DNA of 64,000 bases, taken from positions 206,766 to 270,765 of the forward strand of contig DHVG01000001.1 in the NCBI GenBank assembly GCA_002412545.1. The letters are read 5' to 3'. Position 1 is the first letter of the stretch. Each line of letters begins with the position of its first letter. Below the pieces are notes generated by a model. The model searched no databases, was not told where the DNA came from, and was given only the letters and a program-made list of their open reading frames with translations. Made by a program: the position numbers and the translations under genes. Below, piece after piece: positions 3,395 through 53,436 of this stretch. The stretch is from Elusimicrobia bacterium UBA5214. Its GTDB lineage: Bacteria; Elusimicrobiota; UBA5214.

Positions 3395-4475
3395 TACTAT
3401 TGTTTTTTTCTCGGTGAACTTTGTCAAAGATAGACGTATTTTTGCGGCAGAAGCTCCAGCAGTGAGTATTTCTACCCCGGTTACTCCCGGGATACGCGCA
3501 ACAGAAAGTGAATTGAAATATTTTGCAATTCAAGAGGAAATTCGTCAAAAGTATGAAATACGTCTTGCTGAACAAGAAGAAAAAACAAGAAAACTAGAAT
3601 TATTACTTACAGCGTTATCTAACCTTGTGGAACAAGCGATTGCAGAAAAAATGGAATTCGCCAAGAAAATAGAATCACTCTCTGAACAATTAGAAAAGTT
3701 GAGCCAGAGAAAAGATATTTCCCAACCTACACCTGTGGAGAGTGCCCCGGCAAAAAAAGTTGAAAAAACAAAAGTTACCCCGACAAAAAAAGTTGAAGAA
3801 CCACTAAAAAAAGAAATTAGCGAAGGTACAACAAAACAGATGAAAATTGATGAAAAAAGTGGAAAATCTACTTCAGTAGACCAGTATGTTAAAGTCAGAG
3901 TAAAAGATGGAGACCAGGAAGTAGAAATGGTTCTGGACCCCACTTATACTGATATGGCATTTGAATTTCAAGGCAAGAAGCGTCCTACTGAGTTAAAGAT
4001 AGAACCTGAAACAGTGGAAGAAGTACTCCCACCTACAAAAAGCGATATTCAGGTAAAAAAAAGTATTGAAAAAATAATGAAAAAAATTGACGAACTTAGT
4101 TACGATATAGCCGAATTGAAAAGTGAAAAAGGACCACTGCTAGCTGTTCCACCCAGTGAGAAGGGTGTCCCTGTTCCTCCAAGTGAACCCAAAAAAGCGG
4201 AATTGCCTGAATTACCTAAGGATGTTACTGAAGATGTCTTAGTAAGTATTCATCAAGCACAAAAACTATTTTACGCAGGGAAACATCAAGATGCACTGCG
4301 TGAAGTGCGAAAATCGCTTTCTAAAAAGGAAACTGCCTTAGGTTATGCATTATTAGGTTCTATTTACTTTACGATGGGTGACCTTGATTCGGCTCTGTCC
4401 TCCTGGGATGTTGCATTGGAAATAGACCCACTGATGACTGAAGTATCTGAAATATTAGAAAAATACAAAAGATAA
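3357..4475 (+). CDS. Periplasmic coiled-coil protein with a Lys/Pro-rich linker and C-terminal TPR (CpoB/MotX-like architecture); start uncertain (3345 or 3357)
   Basis: N-terminal hydrophobic signal (CVSILTLSTIVFFSV), long heptad-like coiled coil (EQEEKTRKLELLLTALSNLVEQAIAEKMEFAKKIESLSEQLEKL), and C-terminal TPR (ALGYALLGSIYFTMGDLDSALSSWDVALEIDP). Confidence 0.45.
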   Translation: MKYRYCVSILTLSTIVFFSVNFVKDRRIFAAEAPAVSISTPVTPGIRATESELKYFAIQEEIRQKYEIRLAEQEEKTRKLELLLTALSNLVEQAIAEKMEFAKKIESLSEQLEKLSQRKDISQPTPVESAPAKKVEKTKVTPTKKVEEPLKKEISEGTTKQMKIDEKSGKSTSVDQYVKVRVKDGDQEVEMVLDPTYTDMAFEFQGKKRPTELKIEPETVEEVLPPTKSDIQVKKSIEKIMKKIDELSYDIAELKSEKGPLLAVPPSEKGVPVPPSEPKKAELPELPKDVTEDVLVSIHQAQKLFYAGKHQDALREVRKSLSKKETALGYALLGSIYFTMGDLDSALSSWDVALEIDPLMTEVSEILEKYKR

Positions 4476-46645: not shown

Positions 46646-46767
46646 CTATTTTAATAAACCTTAAGGAAAAAGTCAAAAATTTTGTTATTTTAAATCAGGC
46701 AGGAATGAATTGTAGCCGAGCCTTAAGGCTCGGCTGAATTATTGAACATTAACAACCGTCCCTAATT

Positions 46768-46797
46768 CTAAAATTGACACGGTTACCGAAGTCAATA
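46768..46797. repeat. Direct repeat copy 1 (CTAAAATTGACACGGTTACCGAAGTCAATA), left flank of the Bro-N fragment
   Basis: 27 of 29 nt identical to copy 2 at 47110-47138. Both copies are followed by TGTCACC-like sequence. Confidence 0.6.
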
Positions 46798-47022
46798 ACA
46801 AAAGGTAACTTCCAATTTCAGTCGGTGACAAAATGTCACCACCTCACTTCCTTCTTCTCTTAATCTTTGAGCAAGTTTATTCCAATATTTTCTAGCCGTA
46901 TAATCATCAACTTGGTCGGTTAATACTCGCACTACATCCACAACCGAAAACCACCATTCATTGTTAAATAGTGATCTTCTGATTCTTTTGCCTTTGAATA
47001 ATACAATTTTAGTTGTTTCCAT
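46792..47022 (-). pseudogene. Truncated Bro-N/KilA-N-like (phage antirepressor N-terminal domain) gene fragment, 76 aa
   Basis: The stretch KGKRIRRSLFNNEWWFSVVDVVRVLTDQ fits the Bro-N pattern (IR...E.WF.a.DVa.aL). The ORF is too short for a complete domain and is isolated between direct repeats. Confidence 0.45.
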
Positions 47023-47109
47023 AATTTACTCCTATCAAATTTAAGATTTAATCAGTTTGTAATCCAAATTTCAAGGCATTGGGGAGCCGATTTCTCACCC
47101 GATAAATTT

Positions 47110-47138
47110 GAAAATTGGCACGGTTACCAAAGTCAATA
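47110..47138. repeat. Direct repeat copy 2 (GAAAATTGGCACGGTTACCAAAGTCAATA), right flank of the Bro-N fragment
   Basis: See copy 1 at 46768-46797. Confidence 0.6.
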
Positions 47139-47208
47139 TGTCACCCTGAACATAAGTGAAGGGTCTCACATTTCTGACCCCATTCCCCTCAAGTTGTGTC
47201 TTATTCTT

Positions 47209-48567
47209 TTAATAATCAATATTAAAAAACTTTTTTAAATTTTGTCTTGCAGTTTCACTTCCTAAATCTGCCGCTTTTTGCCAGTCACTAATGCTTAATT
47301 TATTTAATCCTTTTTTATAATAAGCGACTCCACGATTATAGTAGGCATCTTCATGTTGTGGATATAAATCTATAGCTTTATTGTAATCTTTTATTGCTTC
47401 ATCATATAACTCTTTATCTATATAAATAGAAGCACGGTCATTATAAACAAAACGAAGTACCCACTCACTAGCTTCAAAAACTTCATCTTCTGGAAATAAA
47501 ACTAAGACTGCAGTAGTAATATCAAAATTACCTGTCGTAATTTTCGCTCTTTCAGTCCCGGAAGATGATAATACCCAGAAGTATGTTGTAATTTCCGATA
47601 ATCCGAAGTAATTGTAATTTGGGATTGAAGCTAATTGAATCGCTTCCGTATAATCTTGTATTGCTTTGTCATATAATCCTAATTTTCTATAAATGCCCCC
47701 GCGAATTCGATGTGCATTTGCATTTCTAGGTTTTAGTTCAATCCATTTTGTATAGTCGCTTATTGCCATGTAATTCAATTCCTTATTGGCATAAGCATCA
47801 CCGCGGTTCTCATAGGCATATGCATATTCGGGATTTACTTTTATTGCCTTTGTATAGTCTTCTATTGCTTCGTCATCCAATTTTTTATAATAATGATAAA
47901 TAAACCCACGGGCAATGTATGCCTTTGCATATTTTGAGTCCAATTCGATTGCTTTTGTAAAATATTCTATTGCTTTATCAAAAAGATGTAAATAATATAC
48001 TTCTTCACCTTTAATAAACCATTGGTATGCGGTTAGGTTTTCGGTCGGATTAACTTTTATTTCTTCTTTTTCTTTTTCACCCAAAACAATTTTCAAACTA
48101 TCCAATAAATTAAACGCAATTTCATCTTGAAGTTTAAAAATATCGGATATATTACCAGTTATTTCTGCTGTGTCAATTACTTCCCGGGTTTCCACATCCA
48201 CAAATCTTGCCGTAACTCTTAGTTTATCTCCCATAACCTGAAAAGAACCAAAAACTAACACATCGGCGCCATACATTTTGCCTATTTCAACTGCGGTTTT
48301 TTCATCAACGGCACCTGAATACTGAAACTTTATCTCTTCTAATATTTTTGACAGATATTCTCTTTCAAGTACGGTTATTTCGCTGACTTTAACTATTTTT
48401 GTAGTTAAGGTTTCTGAAAATCCCGCACCTATCCAGTTTTTTTCTTTATCTTCGGTTATATTTTGAAAAGGGATTACTGCAATATTTTTTGTCTGATTAG
48501 ACCCCTTCGGGGATAATACGGGGCAAGTAACAAACAAGATAATAATGGCTAGAAATATTTTTTTCAT
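47209..48567 (-). CDS. Lipoprotein with CsgG/FlgP/LpoB-like N-domain and multiple TPR repeats
   Basis: Lipobox LFVTC. N-domain NIAVIPFQNITEDKEKNWIGAGFSETLTTKIV...VLEREYLSKILEEIKFQYSGAVDEKTAVEIGKMYGADVLVFGS. C-terminal TPR units (AYIARGFIY, AYENRGDAY, AYYNRGVAY). Confidence 0.6.
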   Translation of the reverse strand: MKKIFLAIIILFVTCPVLSPKGSNQTKNIAVIPFQNITEDKEKNWIGAGFSETLTTKIVKVSEITVLEREYLSKILEEIKFQYSGAVDEKTAVEIGKMYGADVLVFGSFQVMGDKLRVTARFVDVETREVIDTAEITGNISDIFKLQDEIAFNLLDSLKIVLGEKEKEEIKVNPTENLTAYQWFIKGEEVYYLHLFDKAIEYFTKAIELDSKYAKAYIARGFIYHYYKKLDDEAIEDYTKAIKVNPEYAYAYENRGDAYANKELNYMAISDYTKWIELKPRNANAHRIRGGIYRKLGLYDKAIQDYTEAIQLASIPNYNYFGLSEITTYFWVLSSSGTERAKITTGNFDITTAVLVLFPEDEVFEASEWVLRFVYNDRASIYIDKELYDEAIKDYNKAIDLYPQHEDAYYNRGVAYYKKGLNKLSISDWQKAADLGSETARQNLKKFFNIDY

Positions 48568-48835
48568 TAAAATTCCTCCAAGGAAAACGGTGTCGGATTT
48601 AAAATTTTCAATCTTTTGTATCTTTGCCAGACTTGATTTCTTAATTTATTTCAACGATATAAATATAAAAACTATTTTATAAATCTAATCGCTACAAACC
48701 ACCGCTTTCAGCGGGGTCTCCGAAATACAAAAACCGACTTGGTGAGTTACATCATATTCTCCGGATTAATCCGCTTTTCCAAACACCTCGTTCAGTCCAT
48801 CAATGGTTTTTTGCATATCAAAGGATTTCTGGGCT

Positions 48836-48958
48836 TCAATTGTCAATACAGGAAACAGTAATATAATAATCTTTCTCAAGAAGCCTTAAAGGGAATCCTG
48901 TCTGTGCAGATGCTCTTTCAAGAATCTTAAGAAATTCCTCTTTATCGTTATGAAGCAT
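48836..48958 (-). pseudogene. abiEii: Truncated AbiEii/AbiGii-family nucleotidyltransferase toxin remnant (40 codons, then stop)
   Basis: Minus-strand ORF MLHNDKEEFLKILERASAQTGFPLRLLEKDYYITVSCIDN* carries the AbiEii N-terminal EKDY(W/Y)(V/I)T signature. Its ATG overlaps the abiEi stop by 11 nt (ATGCTTCATAA). The reading frame collapses after about 40 codons. Confidence 0.5.
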
Positions 48959-49748
48959 TTTCAATTAACATCCATTTTTTATTAACCTTGCCTTTCCTTG
49001 ATTTTGAAGGATAAAGGTTAATCAATGATGTTTTTTTAACCGCCTTCAGCAAAGGCACGAGCTCTTTATCAGGCACCCCTGCACTTTCAAGCACAAAGCC
49101 GATTCTCTTTGCTGTTGCGACATCAGGAAACCTCAGAGCATATCTTTTAAGCTTTCCTGCATCTATTTTCCTATTTTTTATCTGTTCTTTTAATATCTCA
49201 AATGCTTTTTTCATGCCTCCGATGGGGTCAGGAAAATAAACCAGGTCAACAAGAGTTCTCTCCCGGTCACTCACTATCACCCCGGTATCCTTGATTCTGA
49301 TTTTTTTAAGACCATACATCCTTTTCTGGGAAATCTTAACCATTTTAAAACGCATGCTGCCGATTACCTTTTCCCTCTGCAAAGAGGTATTTAGTATGTA
49401 CATCACCTGAAAAATTTGGTCAGTAAAGCCATAGTAGTTATACATAGGTGAATAACCGATGTAATAATTGTCTTTGGGAAAGAAAACTGAAGGAATAAGA
49501 AATTCATTGATATTGCTTCCGGCAGGTCCTGCCTCAAGAGGCGAATAAAGATAAACACCCTTCTTTATCTTTTTCAGGATGCCCTGCCTGTTGAGCCTGA
49601 AAAGTATTTTTTCCCTTGCCTTCTTAGGAAATCTAAAGTATCTGCCAAACTGCTCCAGGGTTACTATCGAAACCTTTTCGTAGGCAAGTCTTGCAATGAC
49701 TTTTTTTTCCCTGGGACTTAAATATTGCATTGTATTATTTTTTACCAT
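48948..49748 (-). CDS. abiEi: AbiEi-family type IV toxin-antitoxin antitoxin / transcriptional regulator (apparently orphaned)
   Basis: N-terminal wHTH-like segment (LSPREKKVIARLAYEKVSIVTLEQFGRYF). Immediately upstream of, and overlapping, an AbiEii-like remnant. The gene is about 45% GC against about 33% in its flanks. Confidence 0.5.
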   Translation of the reverse strand: MVKNNTMQYLSPREKKVIARLAYEKVSIVTLEQFGRYFRFPKKAREKILFRLNRQGILKKIKKGVYLYSPLEAGPAGSNINEFLIPSVFFPKDNYYIGYSPMYNYYGFTDQIFQVMYILNTSLQREKVIGSMRFKMVKISQKRMYGLKKIRIKDTGVIVSDRERTLVDLVYFPDPIGGMKKAFEILKEQIKNRKIDAGKLKRYALRFPDVATAKRIGFVLESAGVPDKELVPLLKAVKKTSLINLYPSKSRKGKVNKKWMLIENAS

Positions 49749-49790
49749 TTTTCCATCTCTCGGAAATATTGTAAATTTCTATACAATATG

Positions 49791-49818
49791 ATTTTACATC
49801 TTTTTAGGCTTTTGTCAA
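49791..49818 (-). promoter_or_regulatory. Putative abiEi promoter on the minus strand (TTGACA, 16-bp spacer, TAAAAT), followed by an ATTGTA...TACAAT inverted repeat (49769-49788)
   Basis: Hexamers read from the reverse complement. The inverted repeat lies between the -10 element and the start codon, consistent with an autoregulatory operator. Confidence 0.35.
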
Positions 49819-49906
49819 GTCAAAAATGCTTGAATGCTCGCACAGTAAGAATCATTCCGCATTACTGTAACTAGTGTAGTGCGTCAAACAGATCTTTACA
49901 TTTGGT

Positions 49907-49980
49907 TGTCATTGCGAGGTCTCTTTTAAGAGACCGTGGCAATCCCATTATGAGATTGCTTCACTTCGTTCGCAATGACA
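49907..49980. mobile_element. MITE-like element copy A (74 bp) with terminal inverted repeats tGTCATTGCGAgg ... cgTTCGCAATGACa, abutting the uvrC stop codon
   Basis: Shares its termini and internal blocks (GGCAATCyCAT.A.GAGATT, GATTGCTTC) with copy B at 51396-51519. Confidence 0.6.
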
Positions 49981-49994
49981 TTTCAGTGTAATCA

Positions 49995-51383
49995 TTAGCC
50001 GGGAGTGACTTTTGCGATAGGCTGAAATTTATCTTTTTTGCGCAGGAGTTTGTGGTAGGAAATAGCGAAGCGGTGGGCTTCGTCACGAATCCGCTGGAGT
50101 AGTTGTAAAGCCGGTGAATTTGCCGGTAAATTAAGAGGTTTACTTTTTTTCGGCAATCCCTCCTTCACTAAAGCTTCCTCTTTCGCCAAGGCTTTAGAGG
50201 ACAAGTCGGAGGGCAGGTAGATTTCTTCTTTTTCTTTAGCTAAAGCGATTATAGGTAGTGTAAGGTGTAAGGTGTTAAGTGTTTCCACTGCGGTAGATAG
50301 ATGTCCTTTACCACCGTCAATGAGAATAAGGTCGGGAAATTTCTCCCCCGCTTCCAGAATTCTTTTGTATCGCCGGGAAAGAACTTCGCTAATCATTTTA
50401 TAATCGTCAATTTTATTTACTGTCTTTATTTTATATCTCCGGTATAAGTTTTTGTTCGGTTCACCTTTTTCAAAAACAACTAAAGAACCTACTGCCTGTT
50501 TACCGGAAATATTGGAAATATCAAACGCTTCAATATGTAAAGGTACATTGGGTAAGGAGAACAACTTTTTCAGTTCGCTTAAACCTTGAGTAATTTTGAT
50601 TTTTTTCGGTAAATCTGTTTCTCGGACTTCTTTAAAATCAATCCGCTCGGGAATATTTTGGATTGCGGAAATCGTATCGCGGATTTTTCTTGCTTCTTCA
50701 AAATCAAGTTTTTTTGAATATTGCTGCATTTGTTTTTCTAAATGCTTAAGTAATTCTTGATGGTTCCCTTCTAAAAAAAGAATAACTTGGTTAACTATTT
50801 CCCGATATTTTTTTTGACTAATTTCACCAAGACAGGGTGCGGGACATTGTTTTATATGATAATAAAGGCAGGAACGCACTTTTTTTTCCGGTATCGGTGT
50901 ATCTTTAGAAAGCGGGTATTTACAGAGACGGAGTGGGAACACCCGCTGTAACCAGCGTAAAGTCCTGCGGGTTTGTCCGACTTCAGTGTAAGGTCCGAAA
51001 TAACGGGCATTTTTTACTCTCCCTTCCCGTTTTCTTGCCAGGAATAAACGCGGAAACTCTTCACCCAAAGTGAGCATTAAATGCGGGTAGGATTTATCGT
51101 CCCGCCAGAGGATATTGTATTTCGGCTGGTATCTTCTAATCAGTTTACTTTCTAAAATTAACGCTTCGGTTTCGGTTTTTGTTACCAAGTAGTCAATTTT
51201 GGCAATTTGCGGGAGCATAATTGCATTTTTTGTAGATTGTTCAATATGTGGGTAAAAATAGGAAGCGACCCGTTTTTTTAGAGAAGTAGCTTTACCGATG
51301 TAGATGATTTGACTGCTGCTATTCTGCATTAAATATACGCCGGGTGCAGAAGGTAAGTTTTTCAGTTTTTCTTTTAGATTCAT
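49995..51383 (-). CDS. uvrC: Excinuclease ABC subunit C lacking the C-terminal (HhH)2 domain (462 aa)
   Basis: N-terminal GIY-YIG domain (APGVYLMQNSSSQIIYIGKATSLKKRV), the UvrBC-interacting region, and the RNase H-like endonuclease domain (IEAFDISNISGKQAVGSLVVF...YRRYKIK, DLILIDGGKGHLS, RDEAHRFAISYH). The ORF ends right at MITE copy A. Carries a GGTGTAA heptamer-repeat insertion at 50256-50284. Confidence 0.8.
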   Translation of the reverse strand: MNLKEKLKNLPSAPGVYLMQNSSSQIIYIGKATSLKKRVASYFYPHIEQSTKNAIMLPQIAKIDYLVTKTETEALILESKLIRRYQPKYNILWRDDKSYPHLMLTLGEEFPRLFLARKREGRVKNARYFGPYTEVGQTRRTLRWLQRVFPLRLCKYPLSKDTPIPEKKVRSCLYYHIKQCPAPCLGEISQKKYREIVNQVILFLEGNHQELLKHLEKQMQQYSKKLDFEEARKIRDTISAIQNIPERIDFKEVRETDLPKKIKITQGLSELKKLFSLPNVPLHIEAFDISNISGKQAVGSLVVFEKGEPNKNLYRRYKIKTVNKIDDYKMISEVLSRRYKRILEAGEKFPDLILIDGGKGHLSTAVETLNTLHLTLPIIALAKEKEEIYLPSDLSSKALAKEEALVKEGLPKKSKPLNLPANSPALQLLQRIRDEAHRFAISYHKLLRKKDKFQPIAKVTPG

Positions 51384-51395
51384 TTAAGCGATGCA

Positions 51396-51519
51396 GTCAT
51401 TGCGAAGCCCGAATGTTCTATTGGGCTGAGGCAATCTCATGAGATTTAAGAGCCTGTTCCGAGCTAAGTGAGGAATCTTGATTTGAGATTGCTTCGTCAT
51501 TTCATTCCTCGCAATGACA
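51396..51519. mobile_element. MITE-like element copy B (124 bp): GTCATTGCGAag ... cCTCGCAATGAC, upstream of uvrC
   Basis: Same terminal inverted repeats and internal conserved blocks as copy A. A solo right-end copy (TTCATTCCTCGCAATGACAC) follows at 51573-51593. Confidence 0.6.
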
Positions 51520-51664
51520 CTTATCGGTAAACTGGTTTATGGTTTACCGGCCTATTCTCTTTCGTTAACTGGTTTCATTCCTCGCAATGACACGATTGCT
51601 ATTATCCGTGCAATCACGATTAATAATCTGTGTAATCTATGTTTTAGAAATCTGCGTAATCTAT

Positions 51665-53262: not shown

Positions 53263-53436
53263 GGTATTTTAAGACCGTTGAAAAAGAACGATTACAGCGA
53301 TTACCGACTTTCAATCTGCGTAATCTGTTTTTTTAATCTGCGTAATCAGAAATTGCAAGCAATCTCATTTTAATAAATCCAGACGAATAAATCAAGGTAT
53401 AAACCAAAAAGGTTCATACTGAAGAAAGGAAAAAAA

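Follow-up and report, generated by a model that had tools for sequence, protein, structure and literature searches.

Gene-less palindromic repeats beside uvrC in an Elusimicrobia genome and their putative GIY-YIG nuclease partner

The described systems closest to the elements reported here are the REP/REPIN repeats with their RAYT enzymes, the bacterial MITEs (Correia, ERIC/IRU, RUP, Nezha), the free-standing GIY-YIG homing endonuclease genes (I-TevI relatives, T4 Seg) and the Slx1/UPF0213 proteins (BH0048, EF2693; E. coli YhbQ group). RAYT is a Y1 HUH, IS200-like transposase, and REPs, which have a GTAG or CGTC head, are lineage-specific. Concerning the GIY-YIG enzymes, the Slx1 lineage has been regarded as one of vertically inherited repair enzymes, and the selfish GIY-YIG enzymes have been derived from a UvrC-like lineage (Dunin-Horkawicz et al. 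2006, PMC1564403). GIY-YIG enzymes of the Slx1 lineage and ANKLE1 cut junctions and cruciforms (PMC9071465, PMC10287932). The literature describes no tie of the bacterial Slx1/UPF0213 members to repeats or to mobility.

Here we analysed a stretch of 64 kb (the window) in which two short elements lie on either side of uvrC. These two copies, A and B, carry no gene and belong to a large family of palindromic DNA repeats that crosses many phyla, and full-length members of the family carry the gene of a minimal GIY-YIG nuclease.

The elements on either side of uvrC

The features of the locus are the following.

49907-49980, no strand assigned: copy A, gene-less complete element, 74 bp
49907-49918 pairing with 49969-49980: P1 of copy A
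49918-49935: variable P2 hairpin of copy A (GGTCTCT/AGAGACC)
49938-49947 pairing with 49951-49962: P3 of copy A (GGCAATCCCA / TGAGATTGCTTC)
49995-51383, minus strand: uvrC, 462 aa, intact, not part of the element
51396-51518, no strand assigned: copy B, gene-less complete element of the four-way type, 123 bp, with left arm GTCATTGCGAAG (one mismatch)
51407-51428: hairpin on one side of copy B
51429-51440 and 51484-51495: P3 arms of copy B, with a 43-nt loop
51496-51508: mini-hairpin complement of copy B, GTCATTTCATTCC, which is GGAATGAAATGAC on the other strand
51521-51572: 52-nt interval from copy B to the solo end, containing an unrelated 11-bp hairpin (51524-51550)
51573-51593, no strand assigned: solo right end, half-element remnant

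Copy A, copy B and the solo right end are real and stand far above chance. The 12-nt terminus GTCATTGCGAGG occurs exactly at 49908-49919 (+), 51507-51518 (-) and 51580-51591 (-), against an arithmetical expectation of about 0.008 for an exact 12-mer in 2 x 64 kb; it recurs with one mismatch at 51396-51407 (+) and with two at 49968-49979 (-). The internal block GAGATTGCTTC, common to both copies, has six matches at up to one mismatch where 1.0 was expected, a number reached in none of 100 shuffles. A sequence-only reading of the same DNA had placed the elements correctly, and its solo right end proved to be an exact 21-nt duplicate of 51500-51520. It had also described the elements as non-coding, hairpin-forming repeats, which agrees with what we found: the terminal inverted repeats pair over 12 bp, neither copy contains an ORF, and both copies fold into branched hairpins on both strands (z from -2.5 to -8.1 as RNA and from -3.0 to -8.6 as DNA). 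Copy B, of the four-way type, has junction hairpins on either side, and its AT-GAA-AT mini-hairpin arm is also present in L325. At the outer ends of copy A, T (49907) and A (49980) covary as a Y-R pair and are part of the element.

Copy A was aligned with 37 elements of other genomes, and P1, P2 and P3 all appear in the resulting consensus structure. A half-arm HMM, built from 158 arms of other genomes, also matches copy A (E = 3e-10). With this HMM, and with scans for the terminus and the internal block that allowed mismatches, no further copies, even diverged ones, were found in the 64-kb window.

Copy A lies 14 nt from the uvrC stop codon and copy B 12 nt upstream of the uvrC ATG. Two syntenic relatives (L005 and L007), whose UvrC is 72-75% identical, have a murJ-uvrC spacer of 41 nt and neither copy; therefore copies A and B and the solo end are insertions that occurred after the split from these relatives, in agreement with the mobile insertions that had been suspected from the sequence. 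Copy A is the site of a break in two Logan assemblies of this genome.

The same reading had proposed that an insertion may have truncated uvrC. The protein has the canonical GIY-YIG, UVR and RNase H-like endonuclease domains, and the domain search confirmed that the C-terminal (HhH)2 is absent. However, the UvrC of the two element-free relatives ends at the same point (...SYHKLLRKKEKFEK), also with no (HhH)2, and 108 of the best 120 UvrC homologues are shorter than 500 aa. According to the precomputed Pfam column, the Elusimicrobia/Endomicrobia-type homologues among these 120 have no (HhH)2; a few Omnitrophota-type matches below 500 aa do have HhH. A tblastn search with HhH-containing C-termini found no HhH remnant past the uvrC stop codon. 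Truncation by the element was thus rejected: the missing (HhH)2 is a lineage trait unrelated to the elements, and a short UvrC is the natural state throughout this phylum. For this window a false lead is removed, and uvrC is undamaged.

As to the role of the copies at this site, they are non-autonomous, carry no gene and are probably passive. The sole plausible local effect would be on the murJ-uvrC transcript, in which the copies could form stable hairpins ahead of the uvrC start and behind its stop. Consensus scans for a promoter or terminator role of the two copies stayed at chance level, and neither copy is followed on the uvrC strand by the T-run that an intrinsic terminator would require. 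An Slx1-like GIY-YIG gene of the element type is absent from the 64-kb window, and we found no evidence linking the elements to the GIY-YIG domain of uvrC itself.

A repeat family with a GIY-YIG gene

The family consists of palindromic repeats of the form YGTCATTGCGAG...GAAGCAATC // GATTGCTTC...CTCGCAATGACR, spread across many phyla. The pattern GTCATTGCGA-N4-20-GAAGCAATC has at least 120 matches in genome_contigs and at least 120 in IMG/VR, so that the window copies are not the only ones; the sequence-only reading had named the opposite outcome, no copies elsewhere, as evidence against mobile repeats. Hosts among the matches listed include Chloroflexi, Proteobacteria (e.g. Bradyrhizobium), Bacteroidota, Cyanobacteria, Patescibacteria, Planctomycetota, Nitrospirota, Helicobacter and Sporomusa, and only a handful of matches came from the collections of cultured plasmids and phages. 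Rfam gave no match to the element, either at the gathering threshold or at E up to 10 for the window and up to 1 for 14 other loci, and a literature search returned no description of such a family, which is very widespread and apparently undescribed. The arms are annotated neither in Rfam nor in RefSeq, where a Planktothrix plasmid record marks the CDS only. Few other short repeats are as widespread in bacterial and metagenome-assembled genomes, where the arms cause assembly breaks and spurious ORFs.

Solo and tandem half-arms, such as the one at 51573-51593, are typical of the family. Half-elements are about as frequent as complete elements, and in some viral contigs they stand upstream of nearly every gene.

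Full-length members carry, in the P3 loop, the gene of a minimal GIY-YIG nuclease of about 95 aa that belongs to the Slx1/UPF0213 lineage. The 377-nt copy at locus L079, for example, has a 96-aa GIY-YIG ORF (PF01541, E = 6e-18). Among the 80 closest metagenomic relatives of this protein, an 11-nt arm (up to one mismatch) lies within 300 nt of the gene in 79, and both arms are present in the correct orientation in 63, where chance would give about 0.002 per flank. The stop codon of the nuclease overlaps the P3 arm TGAGATTGCTTC, a motif kept in both window copies.

The nuclease proteins, of 95-99 aa, consist of the catalytic domain alone, with no C-terminal DNA-binding module (NUMOD/HTH), and none of the catalytic residues Y9, Y20, R30, H34, E67 and N86 varies among 27 sequences. 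A 95-aa example is the Planktothrix protein WP_083616022. Comparison of the profile with the PDB gave UPF0213 BH0048 (1ZG2) as nearest (E = 2e-7), with 1YWL at 4.5e-4 and UvrC at 0.075; after BH0048, the nearest solved structures are those of Slx1-Slx4 with branched DNA. A Foldseek search with the predicted nuclease model (pLDDT 93) likewise ranked 1ZG2 first, followed by 6SEH, 7CQ3 and 4XLG, before UvrC. The NCBIfam model of group I intron endonucleases scored 18 bits against a cut-off of 56, and PHROGs holds no family for the nuclease.

Different nuclease clades go with different arm variants. One nuclease clade is named by its arms, GTCATTGCGAG. Arms of the main type were found in none of 12 sister-clade loci (seven distinct sites), which carry GTCATTCTGAG, GTCATCCCGG, GTCATTCCGG or GTCATCCCCG arms in their place; an Elusimicrobia genome is among these hosts.

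Conservation is much stronger in the arms than in the nuclease gene: the nucleotide identity of the ORF is 67% on average, while that of the arms is at least 91%. At the few arm positions that vary, the changes compensate each other. For the -1/+1 pair, C-G was counted 71 times (42 expected) and T-A 72 times (47 expected). Watson-Crick pairing at the three inner P3 pairs was seen 134, 155 and 98 times, where 87, 84 and 50 would be expected, and RNAalifold on 38 elements found compensatory changes at six base pairs. Members of the family fold as three- or four-way junctions, and the junction hairpins are mostly GNA triloops (53, against 3 of the complementary type). GNA triloops, as in d(GCGAAGC), are characteristic of stable DNA mini-hairpins. 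The side on which the junction hairpin lies was tried as a guide to the orientation of gene-less copies and abandoned as unreliable (29 against 14 in gene-bearing copies).

A probable nuclease-hairpin partnership and its alternatives

The best explanation is probably a partnership between a selfish Slx1-like GIY-YIG nuclease and its hairpins, of which the window copies would be gene-less members, with uvrC uninvolved. The arms would be the cognate DNA substrate of the nuclease, either as an extruded cruciform or as hairpins of single-stranded DNA, with a three- or four-way junction. Nicking or cutting at the arms may then lead to recombinational repair between copies, and this repair could maintain and spread the repeats and move the gene among them. 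Such a system would be analogous to REPIN/RAYT, with a structure-selective GIY-YIG enzyme replacing the HUH transposase; for the window copies, a putative partner nuclease would act in trans.

Several observations count against this partnership, among them the absence of such a nuclease gene from the 64-kb window. Arm positions immediately outside GCAATC show no covariation. One identical GIY-YIG protein was found in ten assemblies, always at the same single genomic locus, so that no recent movement of the gene was seen among them. The length polymorphism nearby at these loci was also considered, and it belongs to a different hairpin repeat. Finally, a simple nuclease-plus-hairpin model does not predict abundant half-elements.

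The strongest alternative, which we consider unlikely, is that the hairpins are independent repeats, either useful to the host as REPs are (as mRNA 3' stabilisers, supercoiling sites or protein-binding sites) or spread by another enzyme, and that the GIY-YIG gene homes into their loop. Gene-less copies are indeed far commoner, the gene being present in just one or two of 120 randomly sampled loci, and when present it keeps a constant position in the P3 loop; at some loci it lies between two complete hairpins and not inside one. The placement of the elements also fits, with ORF overlap in 42% of elements against 88% of random placements and 17 of 32 elements within 30 nt of a gene 3' end. Against it, a host function alone can hardly account for arms of the same sequence in different phyla. 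The arm sequence also follows the nuclease clade in at least five variants, which fits co-evolution, but a homing enzyme would follow its site too. The association of gene and arms could equally arise from homing of the gene into pre-existing hairpins spread by other means, a point against the partnership.

It is improbable that the copies are a structured RNA of murJ-uvrC, that is a cis-regulatory element, an RNase III processing site or a small RNA. The strong RNA folds (z down to -8.1), the location directly after the uvrC stop codon and directly before the start codon, and the excess of G.U-compatible over A.C mismatches at two P3 positions of ORF-oriented copies (15:5 and 16:3) would all be compatible with it. 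However, the element matches Rfam neither in the window nor at the 14 other loci, it is a near-perfect palindrome whose arms and half-arms point either way relative to genes, its hairpins have no following U-run, the dominant junction hairpins are the GNA triloops typical of stable DNA mini-hairpins, and the syntenic relatives lack the element.

Classical MITEs, which arise by deletion from an insertion sequence that has the same ends and a DDE transposase, are very improbable: small, non-coding, multicopy elements with terminal inverted repeats and presence/absence between relatives would suit them, and one L..R pair (L060) encloses a Mutator-family transposase, but this is the single case of a transposase between arms in 320 loci, where only six L..R pairs lie 600-4000 nt apart, with unrelated contents, while no target-site duplication flanks 145 of 169 non-identical elements (the remainder being at chance level), the internal helices, and not the termini alone, are conserved and covary, and all 52 ORF-size elements, a sample partly collected through the GIY-YIG gene itself, came from loci fetched via that gene or containing it. 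The flanks of the elements share only the Y...R pair that belongs to the stem. The sequence-only reading had suggested searches for a transposase with matching ends (for example IS630/Tc1 or IS200/IS605) and for target-site duplications; the gene found is instead that of the 95-aa GIY-YIG nuclease.

Going farther than the partnership itself, it is possible, and we propose it only tentatively, that these elements form an unrecognised class of bacterial and phage mobile element in which the bare 95-aa Slx1-like nuclease recognises the three- or four-way DNA junction that its own palindromic arms extrude, structure-selective cleavage and host recombination spread both the nuclease gene and the gene-less hairpins, arm variants co-evolve with nuclease clades, and half-arms serve in phage genomes as portable recombination boundaries around other genes. 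The link between nuclease and arms gives a testable role to the large UPF0213 group ("GIY-YIG nuclease family proteins"), and it challenges the view of the prokaryotic Slx1 lineage as vertically inherited repair genes (PMC1564403). The pair of enzyme and substrate is compact (95 aa and about 75 bp) and would lend itself to the study of structure-selective cleavage and of what may be a new route of DNA mobility.

Comparison with known systems

The elements resemble REP/REPIN-RAYT in being short, multicopy, palindromic intergenic repeats with dispersed gene-less hairpin doublets, in having a nuclease gene flanked by its own inverted repeats with no target-site duplication, and in the co-variation of repeat sequence and enzyme clade. 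They differ in their enzyme, a 95-aa GIY-YIG protein (PF01541) and not an HUH transposase, in the repeat head, which is YGTCAT, in a fold with a three- or four-way junction and two conserved helices, and in arms common to many phyla and viral contigs.

With the bacterial MITEs they share terminal inverted repeats, a length of 70-125 bp, the lack of coding capacity, hairpin potential, intergenic location and assembly breaks, but they have neither target-site duplication nor a DDE transposase parent, and their internal sequence is conserved as much as the termini. Like the free-standing GIY-YIG homing genes, they present a GIY-YIG gene as a selfish insert at a fixed position in conserved sequence, a possible homing site; unlike them, the protein has its catalytic domain only and neither linker nor DNA-binding domain, the nuclease is of the Slx1 lineage, and the "site" is a dispersed palindromic repeat, not an intron, intein or host gene. 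Slx1/UPF0213 gives the best matches in sequence and fold and the same minimal standalone GIY-YIG domain, and it differs in that no tie of its bacterial members to repeats or mobility has been described.

Repeats on both sides of uvrC

The elements beside uvrC are very probably members of a family of hairpin repeats whose gene-bearing form encodes a GIY-YIG nuclease. The features concerned are the following.

49907-49980: copy A (74 bp)
49995-51383, minus strand: uvrC, 462 aa, with GIY-YIG, UVR and RNase H-like endonuclease domains
51396-51518: copy B (123 bp)
51573-51593: solo right end

The sequence-only reading had described terminal inverted repeats (TIRs), a shared internal block, a solo end and hairpin-forming copies around a uvrC lacking (HhH)2, and these observations were borne out. 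In a scan of the window, GTCATTGCGAGG and its complement had three exact matches and two more with 1-2 mismatches, all inside 49907-51593; the block GAGATTGCTTC, common to both copies, gave six matches at no more than one mismatch against 1.0 expected, a count reached by no shuffle; the solo right end repeats the 21 nt of 51500-51520 exactly; and a domain search of the 462-aa protein found no (HhH)2. Each strand of copies A and B folds into a branched hairpin far beyond shuffled controls (z from -2.5 to -8.1 as RNA and from -3.0 to -8.6 as DNA). Copy A is of a three-way-junction type with mixed arms (the conserved stem strands) in its distal stem P3, GTGGCAATC versus GATTGCTTCAC, and copy B is of a four-way type with a P3 loop of 43 nt.

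On the uvrC transcript the copies are predicted to give stable hairpins that lie 12 nt ahead of the start codon and 14 nt past the stop; these hairpins have no terminator-like U-run, and nothing was found tying their location to the GIY-YIG domain of uvrC itself. A half-arm HMM (158 arms) matched copy A at E = 3e-10 and nothing beyond it anywhere in the window, and no GIY-YIG gene of the element-associated kind lies within these 64 kb. The copies are probably best seen as inert, non-autonomous insertions. Contigs of this genome in two independent Logan assemblies (L002 and L004) both stop inside copy A, about 43 nt past the uvrC stop, so that the repeat evidently breaks short-read assemblies.

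It had also been proposed that insertion of an element truncated uvrC, and this must be rejected. UvrC is shorter than 500 aa in 108 of its best 120 homologues, among which HhH domains are absent from the Elusimicrobia/Endomicrobia type and present in a few short Omnitrophota-type proteins; in two element-free relatives it stops at the same point (...SYHKLLRKKEKFEK), and tblastn with HhH-containing C-termini gave no match downstream of the stop codon. The short UvrC is therefore a lineage trait, and the elements were inserted later, leaving the gene intact; in Elusimicrobia/Endomicrobia, absence of (HhH)2 from UvrC seems to be the norm. A few homologues (P0023, P0032, P0036, P0106, P0111) carry a fused SLT transglycosylase domain.

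Two relatives (UvrC identity 75% and 72%) keep the gene order leuS-lptE-holA-rpsT-murJ-uvrC-ABC permease with no element on either side of uvrC, and their murJ-uvrC spacer is 41 nt versus 281 nt in the window; relative to them the elements are insertions. Copy A also lies at the uvrC-side edge of about 3.2 kb (46706-49906) absent from these relatives, where 328 nt lead from uvrC to the ABC permease. This extra stretch contains:

46792-47022: 76-aa ORF, flanked by ~33-nt direct repeats ttgacttYggtaaccgtgYcaatttt
47209-48567: CsgG/TPR protein
48948-49748: AbiEi-like gene
within 46706-49906: 40-aa ORF

The window contains four copies of the 13-mer AATCTGCGTAATC, one of them with 1 mismatch, arranged in two tandem pairs spaced by 22-24 nt, one pair in each intergenic region either side of murJ (51625-51661 and 53313-53347); possible readings are a binding site for a regulator or a further small repeat. 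Another hairpin motif, GAAATTTCTAACGGGGTT, unrelated to that of the elements, lies downstream of uvrC in Elusimicrobia relatives (L005 7480-7510, L007 7465-7495) and inside an insertion polymorphism in an unrelated metagenome contig (L331, about 3990-4180).

Architecture and distribution of the repeat family

The pattern GTCATTGCGA-N4-20-GAAGCAATC has at least 120 matches in a species-representative genome collection and at least 120 in IMG/VR viral contigs. Hosts among the matches listed are Chloroflexi, Alpha-, Gamma- and Deltaproteobacteria (many Bradyrhizobium), Bacteroidota (Pedobacter, Mucilaginibacter, Flavobacterium, Chryseobacterium), Cyanobacteria, Patescibacteria, Omnitrophota, Nitrospirota, Planctomycetota, Helicobacter rodentium and Sporomusa malonica. 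Copies, mostly 66-125 nt, have a 12-bp outer stem P1 (YGTCATTGCGAG / CTCGCAATGACR), a second conserved stem P3 (GAAGCAATCyn / nrGATTGCTTC) with a variable loop and, at the junction, a short, variable GC hairpin P2 on one side or both, often a GC-GAA-GC-type mini-hairpin. Half-elements are as common as complete copies, the solo end in the window being one of them.

Compensatory changes preserve the stems. The -1/+1 flanking bases form covarying Watson-Crick pairs (C-G 71 versus 42 expected, T-A 72 versus 47 expected), which puts the true boundary of the element one base further out than the TIR first described; the three loop-proximal P3 pairs covary too, and with copy A among its 38 input elements RNAalifold recovered P1, P2 and P3 and six pairs with compensatory changes. 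Rfam 15 has no match to the element, and the searchable literature, which does not reach most subscription journals, yielded no earlier description.

The GIY-YIG gene and its arms

In a Planctomycetota contig (L079), a 377-nt copy carries in its P3 loop a 96-aa ORF with a GIY-YIG domain (PF01541, E = 6e-18). The association was tested from the protein side on the 80 closest metagenomic relatives of this protein (59-73% identity): the 11-nt arm (at most one mismatch) lies within 300 nt of the gene in 79, and both arms in correct orientation in 63. Typically the left arm is about 50 nt upstream of the ATG, and stop codon and P3 arm overlap in the sequence TGAGATTGCTTC, which both window copies keep. 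Arms are more conserved than the gene, being at least 91% identical versus a mean nucleotide identity of 67% for the ORF.

The nuclease family is huge, with over 8000 clusters at 90% identity and a protein length of about 95-98 aa; its catalytic residues are invariant, and databases give it no name beyond 'putative endonuclease' or 'GIY-YIG nuclease family protein'. Among solved structures the closest are UPF0213 BH0048 (profile E = 2e-7) and EF2693 (4.5e-4); next in line, by a confident model (pLDDT 93) of the nuclease, come Slx1-Slx4 structures, which rank above the GIY-YIG domain of UvrC. 1ZG2 and 1YWL have been classed as bacterial Slx1-family members, and the Slx1 lineage is seen as vertically inherited, selfish GIY-YIG enzymes deriving from a UvrC-like lineage (Dunin-Horkawicz et al. 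2006, PMC1564403).

As to the MITE-like nature first ascribed to the copies, no target-site duplication was found flanking family elements and no recurrent transposase between arms: the gene in full-length copies is the nuclease. One arm pair in a Patescibacteria contig (L060 556-1838) encloses a 308-aa Mutator-family transposase, probably a secondary insertion.

More distant nuclease clades are surrounded by analogous but different arms.

GTCATTCTGAG: Planktothrix agardhii plasmid NZ_LR882964 (L329), where RefSeq annotates the CDS only and no repeat
GTCATCCCGG: L340, L341, L393 and L396
GTCATTCCGG: Elusimicrobia bacterium GWF2_52_66
GTCATCCCCG / GTCATTCCCG: Thiohalobacter thiocyanaticus (L391)

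Since none of these loci has arms of the type shared by the window copies and the main clade, arm sequence tracks nuclease clade. Such arms are missing from phage GIY-YIG genes with less than about 45% identity. In L391 and L329 the gene stands amid tandem arrays of solo arms, e.g. GTCATTCCCGccaccc x8.

Possible mode of spread

Direct duplications of 60-170 nt often stand on either side of gene-bearing copies; in three loci (L079, L395-397, L198) they are host gene ends and not arms. In co-directional gene arrays on some IMG/VR viral contigs, half-elements stand alone upstream of nearly every gene.

L079 4877-5551: GIY-YIG element and solo arm, enclosed by a duplication (99% identical) of the first 116 nt of pheT that leaves pheT intact
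L395-L397: 91 nt of the purL 3' end, duplicated and flanking the cassette
L224 3300-12800: nine right halves, each followed by AGGGCTAAAGAAG and ATG
L212 4355-7100: three left halves directly upstream of the ribosome-binding site

These duplications and per-gene half-elements hint at recombination or cassette-like behaviour beyond a simple model.

The palindromic symmetry of the elements, the occurrence of arms and half-arms in either orientation relative to genes, and the excess of GNA triloops in junction hairpins (53 versus 3 of the complementary type) weakly suggest that the structure acts at the DNA rather than the RNA level. Loops of the d(GCGAAGC) type are very stable as DNA.

We give an even chance to a mechanism in which the arms, as folded DNA, would be the substrate of the nuclease, and the system would be propagated by cleavage and recombination among copies. 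GIY-YIG enzymes of the Slx1 lineage and of the ANKLE1 type cleave junctions and cruciforms (PMC9071465, PMC10287932). In the main rival explanation, the hairpins would spread or persist on their own, with the gene simply homing into them. For a hairpin-plus-nuclease system such as the one proposed here, the closest functional analogue is REPIN/RAYT.
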